IMG/VR virus record: IMGVR_UViG_3300027736_000002
Location: 1 to 54,919 of that record
Origin: a virus
Lineage: Duplodnaviria > Caudoviricetes
Reading direction: 5' to 3' (one strand)
Length of the DNA: 54,919 nt
The notes beneath the pieces are model-generated. The model was not told where the DNA came from. It searched no databases and saw only the letters and a list, made by a program, of their open reading frames with translations. Below are positions 26,393 to 33,127 of the stretch, in pieces. Position 1 is the first letter of the stretch. The number at the start of each line of letters is the position of its first letter. The translations under genes were made by a program, and so were the position numbers.

Positions 26393-26460
26393 ACATTGAG
26401 ACGGCGAGACTGCCGTGAGTGCATTGTACAACACTTTTTTGAGTGCCATACAATTATTTT
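26393..26460 (-). promoter_or_regulatory. Repeated early promoter/leader element, copy 1
   Basis: Minus strand TTGTAT-N19-TACAAT, then ACGGC-N6-GCCGT hairpin, CTCAATGT and RBS. Confidence 0.8.
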
Positions 26461-28235
26461 GTGACCCCAAGGTCATTAAGCATGGCGTGAGCTTTTTTGA
26501 TGTACCAGTCATGGTCAATGTCATCAGGCAAAGAATCCGGCAGAATCATGAGCGGCTTGGCCCCATCGGTTATAGGGACCTTGTTGCCATTCTTTTTGTA
26601 GTGTATGGCCCCTTGCTCATCTTTGGCATAGTACCAACGGACTGCTTTACCTAGATACTCATTGTTCTTGATAGCCCCTCCGGTAACAGCTCTGACCGAG
26701 ATGAACTTACGAATCTCTGTACACTCATGGATTGTGGTCTCTATCGGAATGTCAAGCTGTAAGTAGTCCACAACGGCTTGCGTACAGATCTGAGTTGTCG
26801 GTGTTTTGGACAGGTTTTCATCGGCATAAACACCTTTGACTTTATACCCGCCATTGCGCTTAAGTGCAATGTAGTTGTTGATGTCACGCGAGTAGACCGC
26901 AGAATAAGAGGTCTCTTCAGTGCTAAAGCCAGTTGTTCTTTCCCACCTGGCAACAATGGTCTCCATGGCCGCTTGGTTGCGCTTTTGGCAATAGATGATG
27001 ATGCCATCAGTATTAGCACTCACAACACTAATGCTTTGTTCTTCAAGAGCCTCAATAAGCATTAGCAAGCTGAGTTGCCCAGTCACGGTTGTTTGAATAA
27101 GTAGGTTAGGTCCATAGAGGGCTGACCACCGTGACCCAAATTTGCCAAAGCTCCCGTTGATCGTAACTTTTAAAGCCTCGTTGATGACCTTATTGCCCTC
27201 TCTTTTTGCCTTGATTCTTTTCTCCACAAGGGATCTGTAGACGGTCAAGAAGTCAGGCCCGATATGGTCAGGATAAAGCTTCTGGTTCAGGATGACGCTA
27301 GGATAGTAGCTAGTCACGTCGCGGTCAACAATGATGTGGTTGGCGTCAGCTATGTAGTGAACTTTTTTCTCGCAAGAATGAATCCCGCCAATGCCTAGTT
27401 GGTATGTGCTAGACCCGACCTTGATCTTGAGTTTGCCGACCTCCAATGGTTCAGCAACGTCACCTTTTTCATTGAGTGTGAATGGCCGCGTCTTAAAAAT
27501 GTCTAAGGCATTGCCTAACCCTGGATGCTTAAACGCAACAAACAACGGAGGAACATAGTTGAATGAAAAGTCTTTAGGCAGACTAGGTCGAGAAACCTTC
27601 TCACCCTTGATTGCCTCGATCTGTTTTTTGATGACCGACTCAGCTATTTGAGCATCTGACTTTGACCGTAACTCCAAGCCATACTCTTTGCCCATCTGTT
27701 CACGTAGCTCAATCTGTTCACTGAGCCGGCCGTATAGGTCAATCGTTGTGTCTAAGTCGTTGATGCAGTAGCTACTCAGCAAGTCTCTTTCGTTTCGCTT
27801 GATCGTTGCGTTTGGTTCTATTGGCAAGTCTTGCATGCGTTTACTGTGCAAGCGACCACCATAGATCTTTAAACTTGCCTTCCCAGGTGCAACTTCAATC
27901 AAGTCAATGTGATCGATGTACTGGCATCTTGGCAATGTGTACTTTGATTCTGCATCCCAAGCCCTAAGATCATTGACAATGATGTCATCTGACAGAGCCT
28001 TCAGCTTTTGTGAATCAAAGCCGGCAATGGATCCTTTAAGCAAAAGCAGGTCATAGCGGTTGCCATTGAACGTGATGATTGTGTACTTGGACAAAAGGCT
28101 TTTAAGTGGCTCAACGTCAAAGTCTTCCCAGTCTGAGCGTTCAAAGGTTGCAATCTTGCCATTAGCAACGGACTTGATGGCAATCAAAAAGTAGTTGACA
28201 TAGCATTCAATGTCAAGTACAGCTTTATTCCGCAT
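26454..28235 (-). CDS. DNA polymerase, family B, with 3'-5' exonuclease domain
   Basis: ExoI LDIECY, ExoII FNGNRYD, ExoIII YCINDL; polymerase motifs DVTSYYPS, KVTINGSFGK, ANTDG. Confidence 0.88.
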   Translation of the reverse strand: MRNKAVLDIECYVNYFLIAIKSVANGKIATFERSDWEDFDVEPLKSLLSKYTIITFNGNRYDLLLLKGSIAGFDSQKLKALSDDIIVNDLRAWDAESKYTLPRCQYIDHIDLIEVAPGKASLKIYGGRLHSKRMQDLPIEPNATIKRNERDLLSSYCINDLDTTIDLYGRLSEQIELREQMGKEYGLELRSKSDAQIAESVIKKQIEAIKGEKVSRPSLPKDFSFNYVPPLFVAFKHPGLGNALDIFKTRPFTLNEKGDVAEPLEVGKLKIKVGSSTYQLGIGGIHSCEKKVHYIADANHIIVDRDVTSYYPSVILNQKLYPDHIGPDFLTVYRSLVEKRIKAKREGNKVINEALKVTINGSFGKFGSRWSALYGPNLLIQTTVTGQLSLLMLIEALEEQSISVVSANTDGIIIYCQKRNQAAMETIVARWERTTGFSTEETSYSAVYSRDINNYIALKRNGGYKVKGVYADENLSKTPTTQICTQAVVDYLQLDIPIETTIHECTEIRKFISVRAVTGGAIKNNEYLGKAVRWYYAKDEQGAIHYKKNGNKVPITDGAKPLMILPDSLPDDIDHDWYIKKAHAMLNDLGVTK

Positions 28236-28653
28236 ACTGACTCCATGCACGACCTGCTAAAACCCACAATTCTTTGCCACTGGATGGGTAGTCTTTATCG
28301 GCAACGATGCGCTTTATGCTTGTGCACAATGCTAGTTTGGTGCAGCTTATGCACGGCGCTGTTGTGCAGTACAAAGTGTCGGCTTCATCGACTTGACGCA
28401 GTCTAGCTATTGCGTTTTGTTCAGCATGGGCTGACATGCAAAGATCTAAGCCTGAACCACTAGGCAGTCCGGCTCCTGCACAAGGCACATCAATGCAATG
28501 TTGCGATCCTGGGAAAGACCCGTTGTAGCCGGAAGACAAGATGTATCCGTTGCCAGTTATCACGGCACCGACTTGCCTTCTGGAACAGGTTGCTCTTTTG
28601 GCAAATGCCCTAGCAACTTGCATGTAAGTCTGATCTAGCGTTGGTCTTGTCAT
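28225..28653 (-). CDS. dCMP deaminase
   Basis: ATCSRRQVGAVI, GYNG, HAEQNAI, PCISC zinc-deaminase motifs. Confidence 0.92.
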   Translation of the reverse strand: MTRPTLDQTYMQVARAFAKRATCSRRQVGAVITGNGYILSSGYNGSFPGSQHCIDVPCAGAGLPSGSGLDLCMSAHAEQNAIARLRQVDEADTLYCTTAPCISCTKLALCTSIKRIVADKDYPSSGKELWVLAGRAWSQYAE

Positions 28654-29768
28654 GATGGTTGCCGACCTTCTCTATGCTTGATGTGATTTATGTTGAATAT
28701 TTTTGAACGGTCTACGCTGTCATAGCCTCTAGGCTGGATGTATTGCTCGCAGTACCGAATCAAGTCACAACCGGGAGCAGCATCTTCAACGTCCATCGGT
28801 CTAGAGTTGAACAAGTCACAAAACATTCTTGTGCCGGTATCATAAAAGCTTTGTTTGCCCATTTTGCCTATAGGCTTAAAGACCAGCTCAAGGGCTGCTG
28901 TTGCATTTGCGCCATGATAGCAGTTTGAATTCTCATCAACGAGTTCTGGAAAGTACTCAGCAATGTCCATGACCCAGGCGGTTAGAACAAACTTGAACCT
29001 TCTCCATCCATGCAGTGTCTGCCAGTCTAAGCACCAGTCAACAGCGGATTGGATTTTTATCGGTTCTGATTGGTCAACCAACCAATTAAAAAAGTCTCGG
29101 GCAAGCTTAGGGGCTATGTCAACTAGGTACTCACGGCCTCCTTGACTATAGGCTGCCGAAGGCTTGTTAAACGAAGGTATTTGGTTGCCCATTGAACTAA
29201 ACATCGGGCCTTCAAAATCTTTGATCAACCGCCTAATTGAGTCCTCACCGTCTGCGTTCTTGCAGAGGTAAGGGACTGGCGAGTTGTACCAGCCATGCGG
29301 TGGCAGCTTAGCGTCACCGATCATGGCAAAGCTTGCACCTGAACCACAAATCCTGTGCACAAGAAAAATGTAGAACCATTCTGCATCGTTGAACTTGTCA
29401 GCGTAGCCTTCACATGCATAGCCGTGTTTGACATTCCATTTGTGTTTTGGATTGTCTTTGCCTAAAAACATTTCTTGTGGCACGTTTGAAAAGCCAGCAG
29501 CCCATCGGCTGACTGTGTCATAGATGTGAATGTTGTCTTGTAAAGGGCAGCCACTTTTAGTAGACTCAGGCAACATGCCAACGTTACGGTCTTGCAGCAA
29601 CTTAGCTCTATGGTGATACGCAACCGCTTCTAAGAAGTAGATCGACGGCTCTAGGTTGTAGTCTGAACAAAGATCCCATTCTTTGTTCAGTGCATCACGA
29701 TACGGATGCCTATCAATTTCATGCAACTCCAATGAGTGCAGTAGTTCAGGGCTATGGTTTAGCATCAT
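28650..29768 (-). CDS. HhH-glycosylase-fold DNA hypermodification protein (aGPT-PPase family: 5-hmdU DNA kinase / amino acid:DNA transferase relatives)
   Basis: FKFVLTAWVMDIAEYFP...YHGANATAAL...MDVEDAAPGCDLIRY resembles the F..D / G.GA / D.E...C...Y pattern of this family; gene context. Confidence 0.55.
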   Translation of the reverse strand: MMLNHSPELLHSLELHEIDRHPYRDALNKEWDLCSDYNLEPSIYFLEAVAYHHRAKLLQDRNVGMLPESTKSGCPLQDNIHIYDTVSRWAAGFSNVPQEMFLGKDNPKHKWNVKHGYACEGYADKFNDAEWFYIFLVHRICGSGASFAMIGDAKLPPHGWYNSPVPYLCKNADGEDSIRRLIKDFEGPMFSSMGNQIPSFNKPSAAYSQGGREYLVDIAPKLARDFFNWLVDQSEPIKIQSAVDWCLDWQTLHGWRRFKFVLTAWVMDIAEYFPELVDENSNCYHGANATAALELVFKPIGKMGKQSFYDTGTRMFCDLFNSRPMDVEDAAPGCDLIRYCEQYIQPRGYDSVDRSKIFNINHIKHREGRQPS

Positions 29769-30691
29769 GGCCCACGCTCCAGGTCAGACATGTCACCCCA
29801 TTCCCGCTGGCTTTTTAAGGGTATATTTTGGACTTGTTTATACTGAGCCACTACTTTGTCATCGGTGCCAACGTTTATGAAGATTGAGTCATCTATGCCA
29901 AAATTTTCAAAGTCTTCCCAGCACTTGGCATCATAGTTTGCCGTTGACGGGAAAGGTGGCCGTTTGTTTAGTGGTACGTCTTTCAAAAACGGTTGAGATG
30001 ATGACCATAGGATTGCATTGCCAATCTCACCATCATGCATATTACGAGCAACGATCACGCCACGGCAAGCTGCTTTAGGCCAAGCTATTTGCAATGCACG
30101 AATGGCTGTTCCAGTAGACACCGACATCCAAATCTCACTAGGATCTTTACCTAGTTGTTCAGTGACAAGTCCTGCAAGATTGATGATGCCGGCTGTGACC
30201 AATGGTGTTTTGCCAAGTCCAAAAGGCAAGTACTTTGCCCCATGCTTTTCAGCCCACTTCTTAGCATAGCTGTTTAAGGTTGGCATTGCTGCAATCTTGA
30301 TAAAACGCAAGTCAGACCCATAAGACAACAGTGCTTTTTGATGCATTGAAGGTTCGCCTGATGCTGGACAAAAGAACACGCAATGTTTGCCATAGAGTTT
30401 GGCAAGGGTTGCAATTGCATCCATAGCCATACCTACGCGAGGAGCACAATAGACTAAAACGTCTTCTTTGCACTCCGCTATCAACTGCTCAGCGCCGTAG
30501 CCTTTCAAGCTGCTAGCACTAGCATCGCCTCTGAACACCCACTTTTTACCATGGGGCCGTACTACTGGGGCTGACAGCTTTGACTTAAAGCCATTGCGCA
30601 TTGCAATGTAGTAGGACCTTGCATCATGTCTGCCCCAGCCTGCCGGAATGTCCATGTTTGACTTGCTAGTTGTGCACGTGAAGATACTCAT
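29765..30691 (-). CDS. PLP-dependent enzyme, fold type II, like phage hypermodification decarboxylases
   Basis: VFRGD...SLKGYGA (Schiff-base Lys), SVSTGTAIRALQ phosphate loop, PPFPSTANYDAKCW. Confidence 0.75.
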   Translation of the reverse strand: MSIFTCTTSKSNMDIPAGWGRHDARSYYIAMRNGFKSKLSAPVVRPHGKKWVFRGDASASSLKGYGAEQLIAECKEDVLVYCAPRVGMAMDAIATLAKLYGKHCVFFCPASGEPSMHQKALLSYGSDLRFIKIAAMPTLNSYAKKWAEKHGAKYLPFGLGKTPLVTAGIINLAGLVTEQLGKDPSEIWMSVSTGTAIRALQIAWPKAACRGVIVARNMHDGEIGNAILWSSSQPFLKDVPLNKRPPFPSTANYDAKCWEDFENFGIDDSIFINVGTDDKVVAQYKQVQNIPLKSQREWGDMSDLERGP

Positions 30692-31644
30692 AGTTGACCC
30701 CAATCAAAACGACGGTAAAAAGGAGGTGCAATGTGCACCGATGAGTTGAGCTCCATGAAAATGTTTGCATACTCTTCAGGGTCTACGGAGTACCAGCTGC
30801 TTGGCGGACTGATCAAGCATTGTTGGCTCATTTTGTCCATAAACAATTCAGTCCAATACCGCCTTTGATCTACTGTACCAGTGAATGGGGTTCCTTTATA
30901 AAAACCGGTTTGAGGGATCTTGCGCTTTTCCCATTCGATCGGTACAGGGGCGGCAATTTCAACTTGAATGTCATACTCACTGTTTAAAAAGTTGGCCACA
31001 TCGGCATAGTTGCTGCATAAGTCAATGACGGCTTGTTTAGGGGCGCTCTGTCGACCGATATGATGTCGGATGTCTATTGATCCACAGACTAAAGTTACGC
31101 GCCTTGGTTTGTGAACCAAGCGGCCTATTTGCTCAACAAAATAGCCTTTTTGTAATGCCCCATGCAACGTTAGTCCGTTTGTCCGGATTACACCTGAACC
31201 GCTAGCTGCAAAGGCCGTTGAGTGGCTGTCACCGATTGCGACTACGTCGTTTTTAAGATCTTGTTGGGTCAGTGTTGTCGAGGCTTGAAGGCGCGCATCT
31301 AGATTGGCCAAAAGGGCAGACGTCAGCCTAGTTGAGCATGTGGCCTGGCCTAAGCGTTTAGACAATTGGTGTGCATAGTTTGGCATAGGCCAATCCAAGC
31401 TGACTAGTTGTCCTTTGTAGTTTGCCAATTCTTCAAGCTTGTCAACTAAGCCTTCACTGACCCCTCCGAACAAATTGAGCACTCCGCCAAAATTGACGCC
31501 ATGCTCCACGTATAGGATTGGGCAAGTTAGCGGGTCAGTTGGCCCAGCAACAGGCACGCCAAGACATTCTGCCCAATGCATGGCCCAGCCACGCACATGG
31601 CTTTTTGGACGGACAGGTATGTTTTGAAATGGGTTGTAAATCAT
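30688..31644 (-). CDS. Two-domain protein: N-terminal T4 beta-glucosyltransferase-like acceptor domain plus C-terminal SGNH-like domain
   Basis: LNLFGG...LANYKGQLVSLDWPMP resembles recalled T4 BGT INFFGG...MAKYKSKIYYLFTDIRLP; VAIGDSHS, GSIDIRHH and SSVH fit SGNH blocks. Confidence 0.5.
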   Translation of the reverse strand: MIYNPFQNIPVRPKSHVRGWAMHWAECLGVPVAGPTDPLTCPILYVEHGVNFGGVLNLFGGVSEGLVDKLEELANYKGQLVSLDWPMPNYAHQLSKRLGQATCSTRLTSALLANLDARLQASTTLTQQDLKNDVVAIGDSHSTAFAASGSGVIRTNGLTLHGALQKGYFVEQIGRLVHKPRRVTLVCGSIDIRHHIGRQSAPKQAVIDLCSNYADVANFLNSEYDIQVEIAAPVPIEWEKRKIPQTGFYKGTPFTGTVDQRRYWTELFMDKMSQQCLISPPSSWYSVDPEEYANIFMELNSSVHIAPPFYRRFDWGQL

Positions 31645-32378
31645 TTTACAAGCCCGATGTGCCGTGGATAGATGTGCAAAGATCCTGCATTCCAGTACAT
31701 GTTGCCTTTGACTAAGTCAGGATAGGTTTGTTGCAGCCTGATCAAAGCAAAGTCGTGGACAGTATTTTGCCAAAAGTAGTCACCTTTATACCCATAGACT
31801 GCATCATTAGAACGCATGTTGACGATGTGGTTCAGCTGGCCGTCACGGATAAGTAGCTGAGTGCTGTACGTGCACATGAAGTCACGCATGCCGTCGATGA
31901 CCGAGTCTTCATGCATCGAGGGTCGAATGTAAATGATCACGGCTTGCCGGCTCTCTTTGTTTAAGACAAGGGAGTCAATTGCCTTATGGAATTGATAGCC
32001 GTTCTCAGCGCTAAAGACACACCATCCATAGTTTGAGTTGATCCGACCCTTCTTGCTTGCAACTTGTTGCCAGACCGCAGGCACAGGCGGAGCAATGTCA
32101 TTAGTGTTCAACGACTGGCTCATGTACCAACGCAGCTCACGAGCATTCCATTCGGCATTCACTTCACCAAAAATGGAAGGCTCATCGGCTATGAATGATG
32201 CATTGACAATCTCCAACATTCCAGATTCGTTTGGCTTCATAGCCTTGAACTGGTCTCGGATGCCTTGGACTGCTGTAAAGTAAGGTTTAACTGGTTTGAG
32301 CCTCGTTATCTGATCAAACAGTTTCTTTCCACGGTTGTAGAATTCTTTGTCTTTTCCTGTGCTGTTATCCTTACTCAT
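31641..32378 (-). CDS. dCMP hydroxymethylase (T4 gp42-like, thymidylate synthase fold)
   Basis: INSNYGW, YIRPSM, DFMCT (catalytic Cys), MRSNDAVYGYKGDYFWQ with Asp at the cytosine-specificity position, GSLHIYPRH. Confidence 0.88.
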   Translation of the reverse strand: MSKDNSTGKDKEFYNRGKKLFDQITRLKPVKPYFTAVQGIRDQFKAMKPNESGMLEIVNASFIADEPSIFGEVNAEWNARELRWYMSQSLNTNDIAPPVPAVWQQVASKKGRINSNYGWCVFSAENGYQFHKAIDSLVLNKESRQAVIIYIRPSMHEDSVIDGMRDFMCTYSTQLLIRDGQLNHIVNMRSNDAVYGYKGDYFWQNTVHDFALIRLQQTYPDLVKGNMYWNAGSLHIYPRHIGLVK

Positions 32379-33127
32379 TACTTGCTCCCTACAAAGCGGT
32401 CATCTTTATCTTTGTTGTGGGCTGTATGCTCCATCAGAATAAAGAGTTGGGTTCCAGCATGGGCAAGGTGGGGCAGCCCTGATTCTGGATCAGTGTCTTC
32501 ACCTTGCCAGAAAGCAAAAAGATGCCGTATGATGGAGCCATAGGTACGTGACCAAGCAACAGTCTCGCCTTGACGGTACGAGTTGGCAAAGTACTTCTTG
32601 GCACCAAAGCCAAACACATTGGCAACTTGCATCATTGGGTCTATTGGTAGCAGATCTACTCGCACCTTTGTTGCGTCAAACTTAGGTGCAAAGCCAGGTT
32701 GGATTGTGCCATCTGAGCTAGGTGCAATTGGGGATAGTGCAGGAACTCGGTCAATGATTTGTTCAAGTTCTGCTTCAGGGCCAATCCAACCTTTAGGTTT
32801 GACTAGGTCACGCTTGAAGCCACCACGCTTATCACCATTTTGGCCAACTTCTTTGGCCATGTTTGCCTTCATGACCTTCTCAAAGCCTTCAAGCAAAGGC
32901 AGCCCTTGTCTGTCAAGAGTGCCAACAGCAAACACGATCAGATCGAGAAGGGCGTCGTACTCATCGACCAATGTAGTTGCGGCGTTGTACTCATCAAGTT
33001 CCTCTTGCAAAGCTTTGACTCGAAAGGCTTTTTCATGAGGATCAAGATGCCAAGGCACGCCAATGCTTGATGTCAAACCAAATTTTTTGTGCATGGCCTT
33101 GACAAGGCCCATAATCCTGCTTTCCAT
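32378..33127 (-). CDS. Fused dNTP pyrophosphohydrolase: MazG/PRA-PH-like domain plus DUF5664-type (dATP/dGTP diphosphohydrolase) domain
   Basis: N-half LQEELDEY...DALLDL...ANMAK...DLVKPKGW; C-half KFDATKVRVDLLP...GAKKY...RHL...DPESGLPHLAHA. Confidence 0.8.
   Translation of the reverse strand: MESRIMGLVKAMHKKFGLTSSIGVPWHLDPHEKAFRVKALQEELDEYNAATTLVDEYDALLDLIVFAVGTLDRQGLPLLEGFEKVMKANMAKEVGQNGDKRGGFKRDLVKPKGWIGPEAELEQIIDRVPALSPIAPSSDGTIQPGFAPKFDATKVRVDLLPIDPMMQVANVFGFGAKKYFANSYRQGETVAWSRTYGSIIRHLFAFWQGEDTDPESGLPHLAHAGTQLFILMEHTAHNKDKDDRFVGSK

Follow-up and report, generated by a model that had tools for sequence, protein, structure and literature searches.

Phage proteins joining a domain related to T4 beta-glucosyltransferase to an SGNH-fold domain: a probable first step in the decoration of 5-hydroxymethylcytosine

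Hypermodified bases are the main means by which phages escape restriction and CRISPR, and are a source of tools for epigenetic chemistry; the beta-glucosyltransferase (BGT) of phage T4, for example, is used for the labelling of 5-hydroxymethylcytosine (5hmC). To our knowledge, the characterised hypermodifications of the amino-acid type all begin with 5-hydroxymethyldeoxyuridine (5-hmdU) and a P-loop kinase. The question considered here is raised by one gene of the viral record IMGVR_UViG_3300027736_000002, the whole of which (54,919 bp, a complete phage genome with direct terminal repeats) is called the window below. The gene, hereafter the target, lies between a synthase resembling T4 gp42 and a pyridoxal phosphate (PLP) enzyme: what does its product do? 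Our conclusion is that it probably catalyses an opening step of a new kind in the decoration of 5hmC in viral DNA. What is new is the architecture of the enzyme, the cytosine context and an inositol-type gene cassette; the logic of the pathway is already known for thymidine. No description of the family was found in the literature searched, though similar contigs may be listed in supplementary material such as Figure 2 and the supplements to PMC8989533. The gene and its two domains are placed as follows.

30688..31644, minus strand: target gene, ATG to TGA, 318 residues, with BGT-N-like and SGNH domains, from the open reading frame (ORF) and its translation
31270..31644, minus strand: N-terminal domain, residues 1 to about 125, three beta-alpha units, homologous by profile comparison to T4 BGT 1-115
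30691..31269, minus strand: C-terminal domain of predicted SGNH fold, residues about 126 to 318, with blocks I, II, III and V

A preliminary description, made from the DNA letters, had proposed this reading frame, and the frame is real. It runs on the minus strand and contains every peptide quoted there (ILYVEHGVNFGGVLNLFGG, SLDWPMP, VAIGDSHS, GSIDIRHH and SSVH), and the plus-strand frame over 30688-31644 is riddled with stops. The protein belongs to phrog_13881 (E 1.9e-61), a group of unknown function; it has no Pfam match at E<=1, and searches of PDB sequences with the single protein and with profiles of the family alignments returned no BGT or SGNH chain at E<=10. The family is nonetheless widespread: from 1464 candidates, 467 database proteins were related at E<=0.001, which reduce to 372 representatives at 50% identity (309 of these at E<=1e-10), and at least 580 viral contigs encode a relative. 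Conservation was counted over 105 diverse representatives. G138, S140, H141, D191, R193, H195, R241, R261 and H304 are invariant in all 105, followed by N57, H16 and D139 (104 each), E298 (103), S15 (99), G61 (98) and E237 (97), and the preliminary observation is far beyond chance. The protein had been called a chimera; it does have two domains, but the word is misleading, since the two-domain form is kept throughout the family.

The N-terminal domain carries S15-H16, the loop N57-L-F-G-G61 and S82-L-D84. BGT flips its base and uses Asp100 in catalysis; its C-terminal part is the UDP-glucose-binding domain. For comparison, the b-gt gene was taken from the T4 record, 42 homologues were gathered and 36 were aligned, and in this alignment N70, G73, G74, T99 and D100 are invariant. 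Comparison of the 105-sequence family profile with the 36 BGT sequences by hhalign gave a probability of 95.8% and E 7e-9 over 96 columns, with target residues 1-97 placed on BGT residues 1-115; the N-terminal domain alone gave 96.5% and E 7e-10. Set against the score of 69.8 for the real pair, reversed profiles reached 13.9 and 17.1, unrelated profiles 17.4 and 15.6, and 30 column shuffles no more than 20.2. Alignments rebuilt from DNA-derived ORFs behaved similarly, with 90.4% (E 1.4e-6) for 94 sequences from the type-A cassettes defined below and 95.7% (E 9.5e-9) for 46 from type-B cassettes; a narrower alignment of 40 sequences gave only 40% (E 2.9e-4). The target loop N-L-F-G-G (57-61) aligns on N-F-F-G-G of BGT (70-74), so that the near-invariant N57 and G61 match the BGT-invariant N70 and the G73/G74 of the same loop. 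An AlphaFold2 model places a strand at 43-46, a helix at 64-74 and a strand at 79-83, as expected in this stretch of a Rossmann-like domain. The likeness to BGT, which had been noticed by eye, is thus borne out by hhalign and its controls: the domain is homologous to the acceptor-side part of BGT and shares with it the N-x-F-G-G loop and an acidic residue after the next strand.

The relationship ends there. There is no counterpart beyond the first 115 or so residues of BGT, the BGT C-terminal residues R191, R269 and E272, conserved in alignment A4, are unmatched, and the best hhalign score of the target C-terminal domain against BGT was 20.8 over 10 columns, which is not significant. The Pfam model of the enzyme (T4-Gluco-transf, PF09198) is reached at its gathering score by 0 of 105 members, and two match it at E 0.075. 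With an SGNH domain in place of the C-terminal half of BGT, and the Pfam cut-off never reached, the target cannot be a UDP-glucose glycosyltransferase. The N-terminal domain also aligns with an SGNH profile (score 28.0, E 2.9e-4) and may in origin be a degenerate half-SGNH domain; because BGT scores 64.8-69.8, we read the lower value as generic beta-alpha-beta similarity.

What replaces the sugar-nucleotide half is clearer in structure than in sequence. An AlphaFold2 model computed on the 105-sequence alignment has a mean predicted local distance difference test score of 97.1 and a predicted template modelling (TM) score of 0.92, and Foldseek finds 16 PDB matches for it at E<=0.001, all GDSL/SGNH-type esterases, with 2hsj at the top (E 6.9e-5, target TM score 0.55). 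The 50 best structural matches are all esterases, lipases or acyltransferases. The predicted structure settles the three-layer alpha/beta/alpha SGNH fold of the C-terminal domain, and with it the earlier proposal that the UDP-glucose-binding half of BGT is gone and an SGNH fold stands in its stead. The corresponding blocks are G138-D-S140-H141 (I), G157 (II), G188-S/N-I-D191-I-R193-H-H195 (the region of III) and E298...S302-V-H304 (V). Sequence similarity to the SGNH/GDSL esterases and O-acyltransferases (7tog, 4rsh, 2hsj, the platelet-activating factor acetylhydrolase (PAF-AH) 1bwp and PatB 7tjb/8tlb) is marginal. A profile was made from 39 PF13472 domains of 43 bacterial genomes, a set used because the relatives of TesA were all at least 88% identical and useless for a profile. 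By hhalign, residues 126-318 matched it with a score of 31.7 (45%, E 2.2e-4), collinear across blocks I, II, III and V; 40 shuffles scored at most 18.3 and the reversed profile 10.9. Comparison of the family profile with the single E. coli TesA sequence, which was tried and set aside, aligned the GDS block alone. A six-frame search for PF13472 gave hits in 0 of 47 related viral records, and in the ESM Atlas, which provides a lead only, an SGNH cluster stands at rank 23 for the target.

Among the putative active-site residues, G138, S140 and H304 are present in 105 of 105 members and D139 in 104, and hhalign places them on the GDS motif and the block V His of SGNH enzymes. G157 (95 of 105) is the candidate oxyanion Gly, and E298 may supply the acid. 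The target is set apart from other SGNH/GDSL enzymes by its N-terminal domain, which is of a DNA-enzyme type, and by a cytoplasmic DNA context rather than one of lipid or carbohydrate.

That context is provided by the neighbouring genes of the window, which are these.

31641..32378, minus strand: gp42-type deoxycytidylate hydroxymethylase (5-hydroxymethyl-dCMP (5hm-dCMP) synthase); Pfam Thymidylat_synt E 3.6e-13
29765..30703, minus strand: PLP enzyme of PALP fold type II; Pfam PALP match at E 1.7e-5, under the cut-off; phrog_7093 E 1.4e-43
28650..29768, minus strand: p372, a 372-residue partner with a predicted helical, DNA-glycosylase-like fold nearest to PaMx11 gp46
28225..28653, minus strand: dCMP deaminase; Pfam dCMP_cyt_deam_1 E 2.9e-20
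32378..33127, minus strand: pyrophosphohydrolase of MazG type or dATP/dGTP-diphosphohydrolase type; PF18909 E 7e-28, PRA-PH E 3e-6
26454..28250, minus strand: DNA polymerase, in the same minus-strand block as the target

The block thus reads DNA polymerase, dCMP deaminase, p372, PLP enzyme, target, synthase and pyrophosphohydrolase. Within 28650-32378, ATGA start/stop overlaps occur at three junctions (synthase/target, target/PLP enzyme and PLP enzyme/p372), which implies translational coupling of these four genes. Because such overlaps join the neighbouring genes, the PLP gene probably starts at the ATG at 30691, which overlaps the target stop, and not at the TTG at 30703, 12 nucleotides upstream, chosen by the ORF finder.

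The synthase is the best guide to the base. Alignment A5 puts its identity to T4 gp42 at 46% (50% across the tblastn match), gene-42 homologues head its phage matches, and the target adjoins it in the window as BGT does in T4. In this enzyme family N177D is associated with dCMP as the substrate, L143D/E with hydroxymethylation and D169N with the 5-hydroxy-dCMP synthases, according to PMC13326640. The window synthase, with its motifs DFMC and RSND....G...D, has L143D, keeps D169 and has N177D, which is the pattern of a 5hm-dCMP synthase. The D169/D177 signature recurs in 71 of the 73 homologous synthases that lie near close relatives of the target and in 19 of the 25 near distant ones; among the other six, three have N177 and three lack the motif. 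Because the adjoining synthase is gp42-like and has the 5hm-dCMP signature, the base is most likely 5hmC, a judgement made from sequence. This part of the earlier proposal is upheld by the synthase signature and the identity to gp42; that 5hmC in DNA would be the substrate of the target itself goes a step further, and we infer it. The three synthases with N177 beside distant family members (L207-L286) are of the dUMP type, and some members may therefore act on 5-hmdU.

Downstream of the target, the PLP enzyme and p372 recall the later steps of thymidine hypermodification. M6 gp52 and ViI gp226 have been shown experimentally to be PLP decarboxylases of amino-acid-base conjugates with a free alpha-amine, as set out in PMC8989533, and M6 gp52 matches the same phrog_7093 as the window enzyme, at E 2.2e-159. 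For the p372 model, the top structural match among 48,161 chains is PaMx11 gp46, the glycinyltransferase of 5-phosphomethyldeoxyuridine (5-PmdU), an amino-acid:DNA transferase. It is p372, and not the target, that is related in this way to the amino-acid:DNA transferases (ADDT/aGPT-Pplase2; PaMx11 gp46, M6 gp51 and ViI gp247), from which it differs in having no sequence-level similarity and about 80 more residues, and in that its substrate would be an activated 5hmC. No significant match to p372 was obtained by BLASTP against the Aeromonas protein ORF233c, by tblastn against phages, with Pfam (36 members), with a PDB profile or with Foldseek, nor by hhalign against M6 gp51; against 42 HMUDK_hel sequences hhalign gave 21.0, with a shuffle maximum of 19.7, which is not significant. 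The ESM Atlas, again as a lead only, gives for p372 clusters in which 13-14% of the members have HMUDK_hel. In M6, HMUDK_hel corresponds to gp55, ADDT to gp51 and the HMUDK kinase (PF18748) to gp54; searches of the complete 54.9-kb genome for these three families returned nothing at E<=1. Two suggestions made earlier are probably mistaken. The target had been thought able to install the group that the PLP enzyme then processes, and p372 is the likelier installer, given its best structural match. It had also been suggested that an aminoacyl ester is formed; an ester made through the alpha-carboxyl leaves no carboxylate, and hence could not be decarboxylated by a PLP enzyme of the M6 gp52 type.

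Surveys of related loci show that the arrangement is conserved. Over the window and 80 IMG/VR loci, down to about 39% identity, the genes of what we call the type-A cassette were counted: the target in 81, the PLP enzyme in 77, p372 in 75, dCMP deaminase in 73, synthase in 71 and MazG in 63. The order target-PLP-p372 is constant across the 81 loci, misses being mostly at contig ends, so that hydroxymethylase, transferase-like protein and gp52-type PLP enzyme, the cluster typical of hypermodification pathways, stand together in 75-77 of them. In 80 more distant loci (L207-L286), p372 is found in 26 and the PLP enzyme in 21, and 50 carry instead a gene resembling myo-inositol-1-phosphate synthase (PF01658, E 6e-23). 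The companions of this type-B cassette, exemplified by L225:7905-12455, one of the 50, are a gene of about 133 residues (48), an FkbM methyltransferase (34) and an HMUDK_hel protein (42; PF18723, E 2.3e-13). The small gene shows motifs like those of haloacid dehalogenase (HAD) phosphatases by eye, with Pfam support in one of five sequences (E 0.0013, below the cut-off). Altogether 106 of 161 loci are type A, 50 type B, five neither and none both, and when 145 distinct sequences were placed on a tree, the largest clade made up of type A alone had 71 members (support 1.0) and the largest of type B alone had 38 (support 0.83). The type-B cassette suggests a polyol-derived, possibly O-methylated DNA modification. 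Two type-B cassettes also contain a full homologue of T4 BGT (L221:3353-4375, between the HAD-like gene and FkbM; L245:3404-4441, between the HAD-like gene and HMUDK_hel), and one phage may thus combine both kinds of 5hmC enzyme.

Fusions tie the family to the same partners. P0191 joins the target to p372, and P0215, P0223, P0228 and P0243 look alike by eye; P0186 (981 residues) unites an FkbM methyltransferase, HMUDK_hel (E 4.5e-11) and the target domain. Other members are extended at the N-terminus, by 110-220 residues in P0141, P0152 and P0253; in P0135 (445 residues) there is an N-terminal Tudor-like match (PF21743, E 2.2e-5, below the cut-off). In 40 phage records (38 Aeromonas, two Stenotrophomonas) the family domain forms the N-terminus of a protein of about 795-805 residues, the tail of which has a faint match to HMUDK_hel (E 0.003-0.004; ORF233c, E 0.0036). 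The Aeromonas fusion gene (44RR2.8t, L001:4399-8379; AS4, L002:4368-8373) lies directly downstream of a gene for a sodium/solute symporter of the glucose/inositol type, and 44RR2.8t also encodes a gp42-type synthase. Aeromonas phages 44RR, 31 and 25 are described, in Petrov et al. 2010 (PMC2993671), as having genes 42 and 56 and no glucosyltransferase, and any further modification of their hydroxymethyl-dCMP (Hm-dCMP) is left there as a question.

We hold with considerable confidence that the target belongs to a hypermodification pathway, as an enzyme that modifies hydroxymethylpyrimidine in DNA. The more specific proposal, that it is a 5hmC-DNA O-acyltransferase which replaces the kinase as the activating step, seems to us evenly poised between right and wrong. 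According to this scheme, the target would modify the hydroxymethyl group of 5hmC in phage DNA after replication. The N-terminal domain would bind the DNA and present the hydroxyl, D84 standing in for Asp100 of BGT. The SGNH domain (Ser140, Gly157, Asn/Ser189 and His304) would accept an acyl group from a donor that is a thioester or ester (acetyl-CoA, for instance), hold it as a seryl ester, and pass it from Ser140 to the hydroxyl to give 5-acyloxymethylcytosine. The ester would then serve as a leaving group, a part played in thymidine hypermodification by the 5-PmdU phosphate. In type A, p372 would displace it with an amino acid that keeps its alpha-amine free, for example O-linked serine, and the M6-gp52-type PLP enzyme would decarboxylate the conjugate; in type B, a glycosylase-fold partner might displace the ester with inositol. 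Since the group added in type B looks like a free alcohol (inositol) and no nucleotidyltransferase lies nearby, activation and displacement are favoured over transfer from a nucleoside diphosphate donor.

The target would occupy the same logical place as the 5-hmdU DNA kinases (5-HMUDK; M6 gp54 and SP10 gp186; PF18748 with PF18723), ahead of a transferase-like protein and a gp52-type PLP enzyme, and some of its homologues form fusions with HMUDK_hel, a helical domain that takes its name from these kinases. SP10 gp186 has a kinase domain and a C-terminal part, according to PMC8989533; that this part is HMUDK_hel follows only from the description of the Pfam family. The resemblance is one of functional analogy: the target has no P-loop, no homology to the kinases and a different fold, it lies in the context of a 5hm-dCMP synthase and not of a dUMP hydroxymethylase, and its chemistry is presumably acylation.

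A number of observations weigh against this reading. The kinship of the N-terminal domain with BGT comes from profile comparison and not from superposition; both fold searches with the whole model were filled by the SGNH domain, and model residues before about 85 were barely covered. D84 pairs with BGT D100 in the narrower alignment, but in the 105-sequence alignment a two-residue gap opposite T99-D100 follows directly after D84, and among the 105 diverse members, 66 have Asp and 11 have Glu at position 84. The SGNH signal is weaker with the rebuilt alignments (type A 21.1, E 0.03; type B 28.5, E 0.0017), and SGNH-type Pfam matches stay below threshold (Lipase_GDSL_2 in 7/105, best E 2.1e-4; Lipase_GDSL in 9/105; PF19040 in 7/105). 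Compared with SGNH/GDSL enzymes, the block III Asn is offset and retained in only some members, position 189 being Asn in 59 and Ser in 45 of 105 within G-[NS]-I-D and not G-x-N-D; the block V Asp is absent, position 301 being Ser in 24, Gly in 22, Arg in 20 and Gln in 20. Six further invariant residues (H141, D191, R193, H195, R241 and R261) lie outside SGNH chemistry and could signal phosphate chemistry. The PLP enzyme of the window is distant from M6 gp52 (BLASTP E 0.003, 23% over 201 residues), and jackhmmer started from M6 gp52 recovered 0 of 80 loci. Finally, every step of the scheme is one that we infer, and no acyl donor is encoded or identified.

These points leave room for other explanations. 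The six extra residues speak for non-acyl chemistry on the SGNH scaffold, in which the invariant Arg and His would bind a phosphate donor and 5hmC would be phosphorylated or otherwise activated, making the target a functional substitute for the kinase. The known pathway does employ a phosphate leaving group, according to PMC8989533, and the family has fusions with HMUDK_hel, which owes its name to its presence in 5-hmdU DNA kinases. The 50 best structural matches, however, include no phosphotransferase, searches gave no match to a P-loop or a kinase family, and Ser140 and His304 are strictly conserved, so that we consider this explanation quite improbable. The direct transfer put forward in the preliminary description, in which the acyl or aminoacyl ester stays on 5hmC or is trimmed by the PLP enzyme, has more to be said for it; the p372 or HMUDK_hel partner would on this view only bind or flip DNA. 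BGT itself, to which the N-terminal domain is homologous, transfers straight to the hydroxyl; SGNH O-acyltransferases such as PatB are among the structural matches; and M6 gp55 (HMUDK_hel) is dispensable for the kinase and transferase steps in vitro, according to PMC8989533, which means that helical partners need not be catalytic. Yet p372 finds its best structural match in a catalytic amino-acid:DNA transferase, an alpha-carboxyl ester would offer a gp52-type decarboxylase no carboxylate, and the type-B cassette appears to supply a free polyol and not an acyl group. We therefore regard direct transfer as unlikely.

A different base is another possibility, since the characterised pathways with an amino-acid:DNA transferase and a PLP decarboxylase all act on 5-hmdU, as reported in PMC8989533; the dCMP deaminase would turn 5hm-dCMP into 5hm-dUMP, and the substrate would be 5-hydroxymethyluracil in a variant of thymidine hypermodification. 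The deaminase is linked in 73 of 81 loci, and three of 25 synthases near distant members have the dUMP-type Asn at 177. T4, however, carries cd alongside gene 42, and a deaminase is thus to be expected in a 5hmC phage anyway. The synthase signature is of the dCMP type in 71/73 and 19/25, BGT, the relative of the N-terminal domain, is a 5hmC enzyme, and the family-carrying Aeromonas phages 44RR, 31 and 25 are listed as gene 42/56 phages in PMC2993671; a uracil substrate is to us distinctly improbable. Least probable is that the protein is an ordinary esterase without a DNA role, for instance a carbohydrate or cell-wall O-acetylesterase acting at infection or lysis, and merely lies among genes of nucleotide metabolism. 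Its nearest folds are indeed carbohydrate esterases, PAF-AH-like enzymes and sialate O-acetylesterases. Against this stand the conserved and coupled position between the gp42-type synthase and PLP/p372 in 75-77 of 81 loci, the fusions to p372 and HMUDK_hel, the N-terminal domain homologous to a DNA glucosyltransferase, and the location in the replication module on the same strand as the DNA polymerase.

If O-acylation as the activating step is correct, amino-acid-type chemistry would become available on cytosine through another kind of activating enzyme, one that combines half of BGT with an SGNH domain. A wider reading can be offered only tentatively, and we would not count on it. The family might represent a new base-activating class, in which O-acylation of 5hmC replaces phosphorylation by a 5-hmdU kinase and feeds glycosylase-fold transferases. 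The two mutually exclusive cassettes might then lead to at least two undescribed cytosine hypermodifications, one derived from an amino acid (such as 5-(2-aminoethoxy)methylcytosine, equivalent on cytosine to the ViI base) and one from inositol or O-methyl-inositol, and the fusion form might be the enzyme, long missing, that modifies Hm-dCMP in the T4-like Aeromonas phages 44RR, 31 and 25. The question about these three phages becomes testable, because they are in culture and carry the family as a 795-residue fusion. An enzyme that derivatises 5hmC with a group other than glucose could also serve in 5hmC mapping.

Two neighbours of the target in the window deserve brief mention. The pyrophosphohydrolase is a two-part protein, with an N-terminal half of the PRA-PH/MazG type and a C-terminal half of the dATP/dGTP-diphosphohydrolase type; by its position, where T4-like phages would need such an enzyme, we take it as a candidate dCTPase. 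At the nucleotide level, no phage record matched the region when 12 kb of it was searched by megablast. The DNA polymerase is about 47-49% identical to the polymerases of Pseudoalteromonas, Alteromonas and Pseudomonas (PaMx25/NP1-type) phages.

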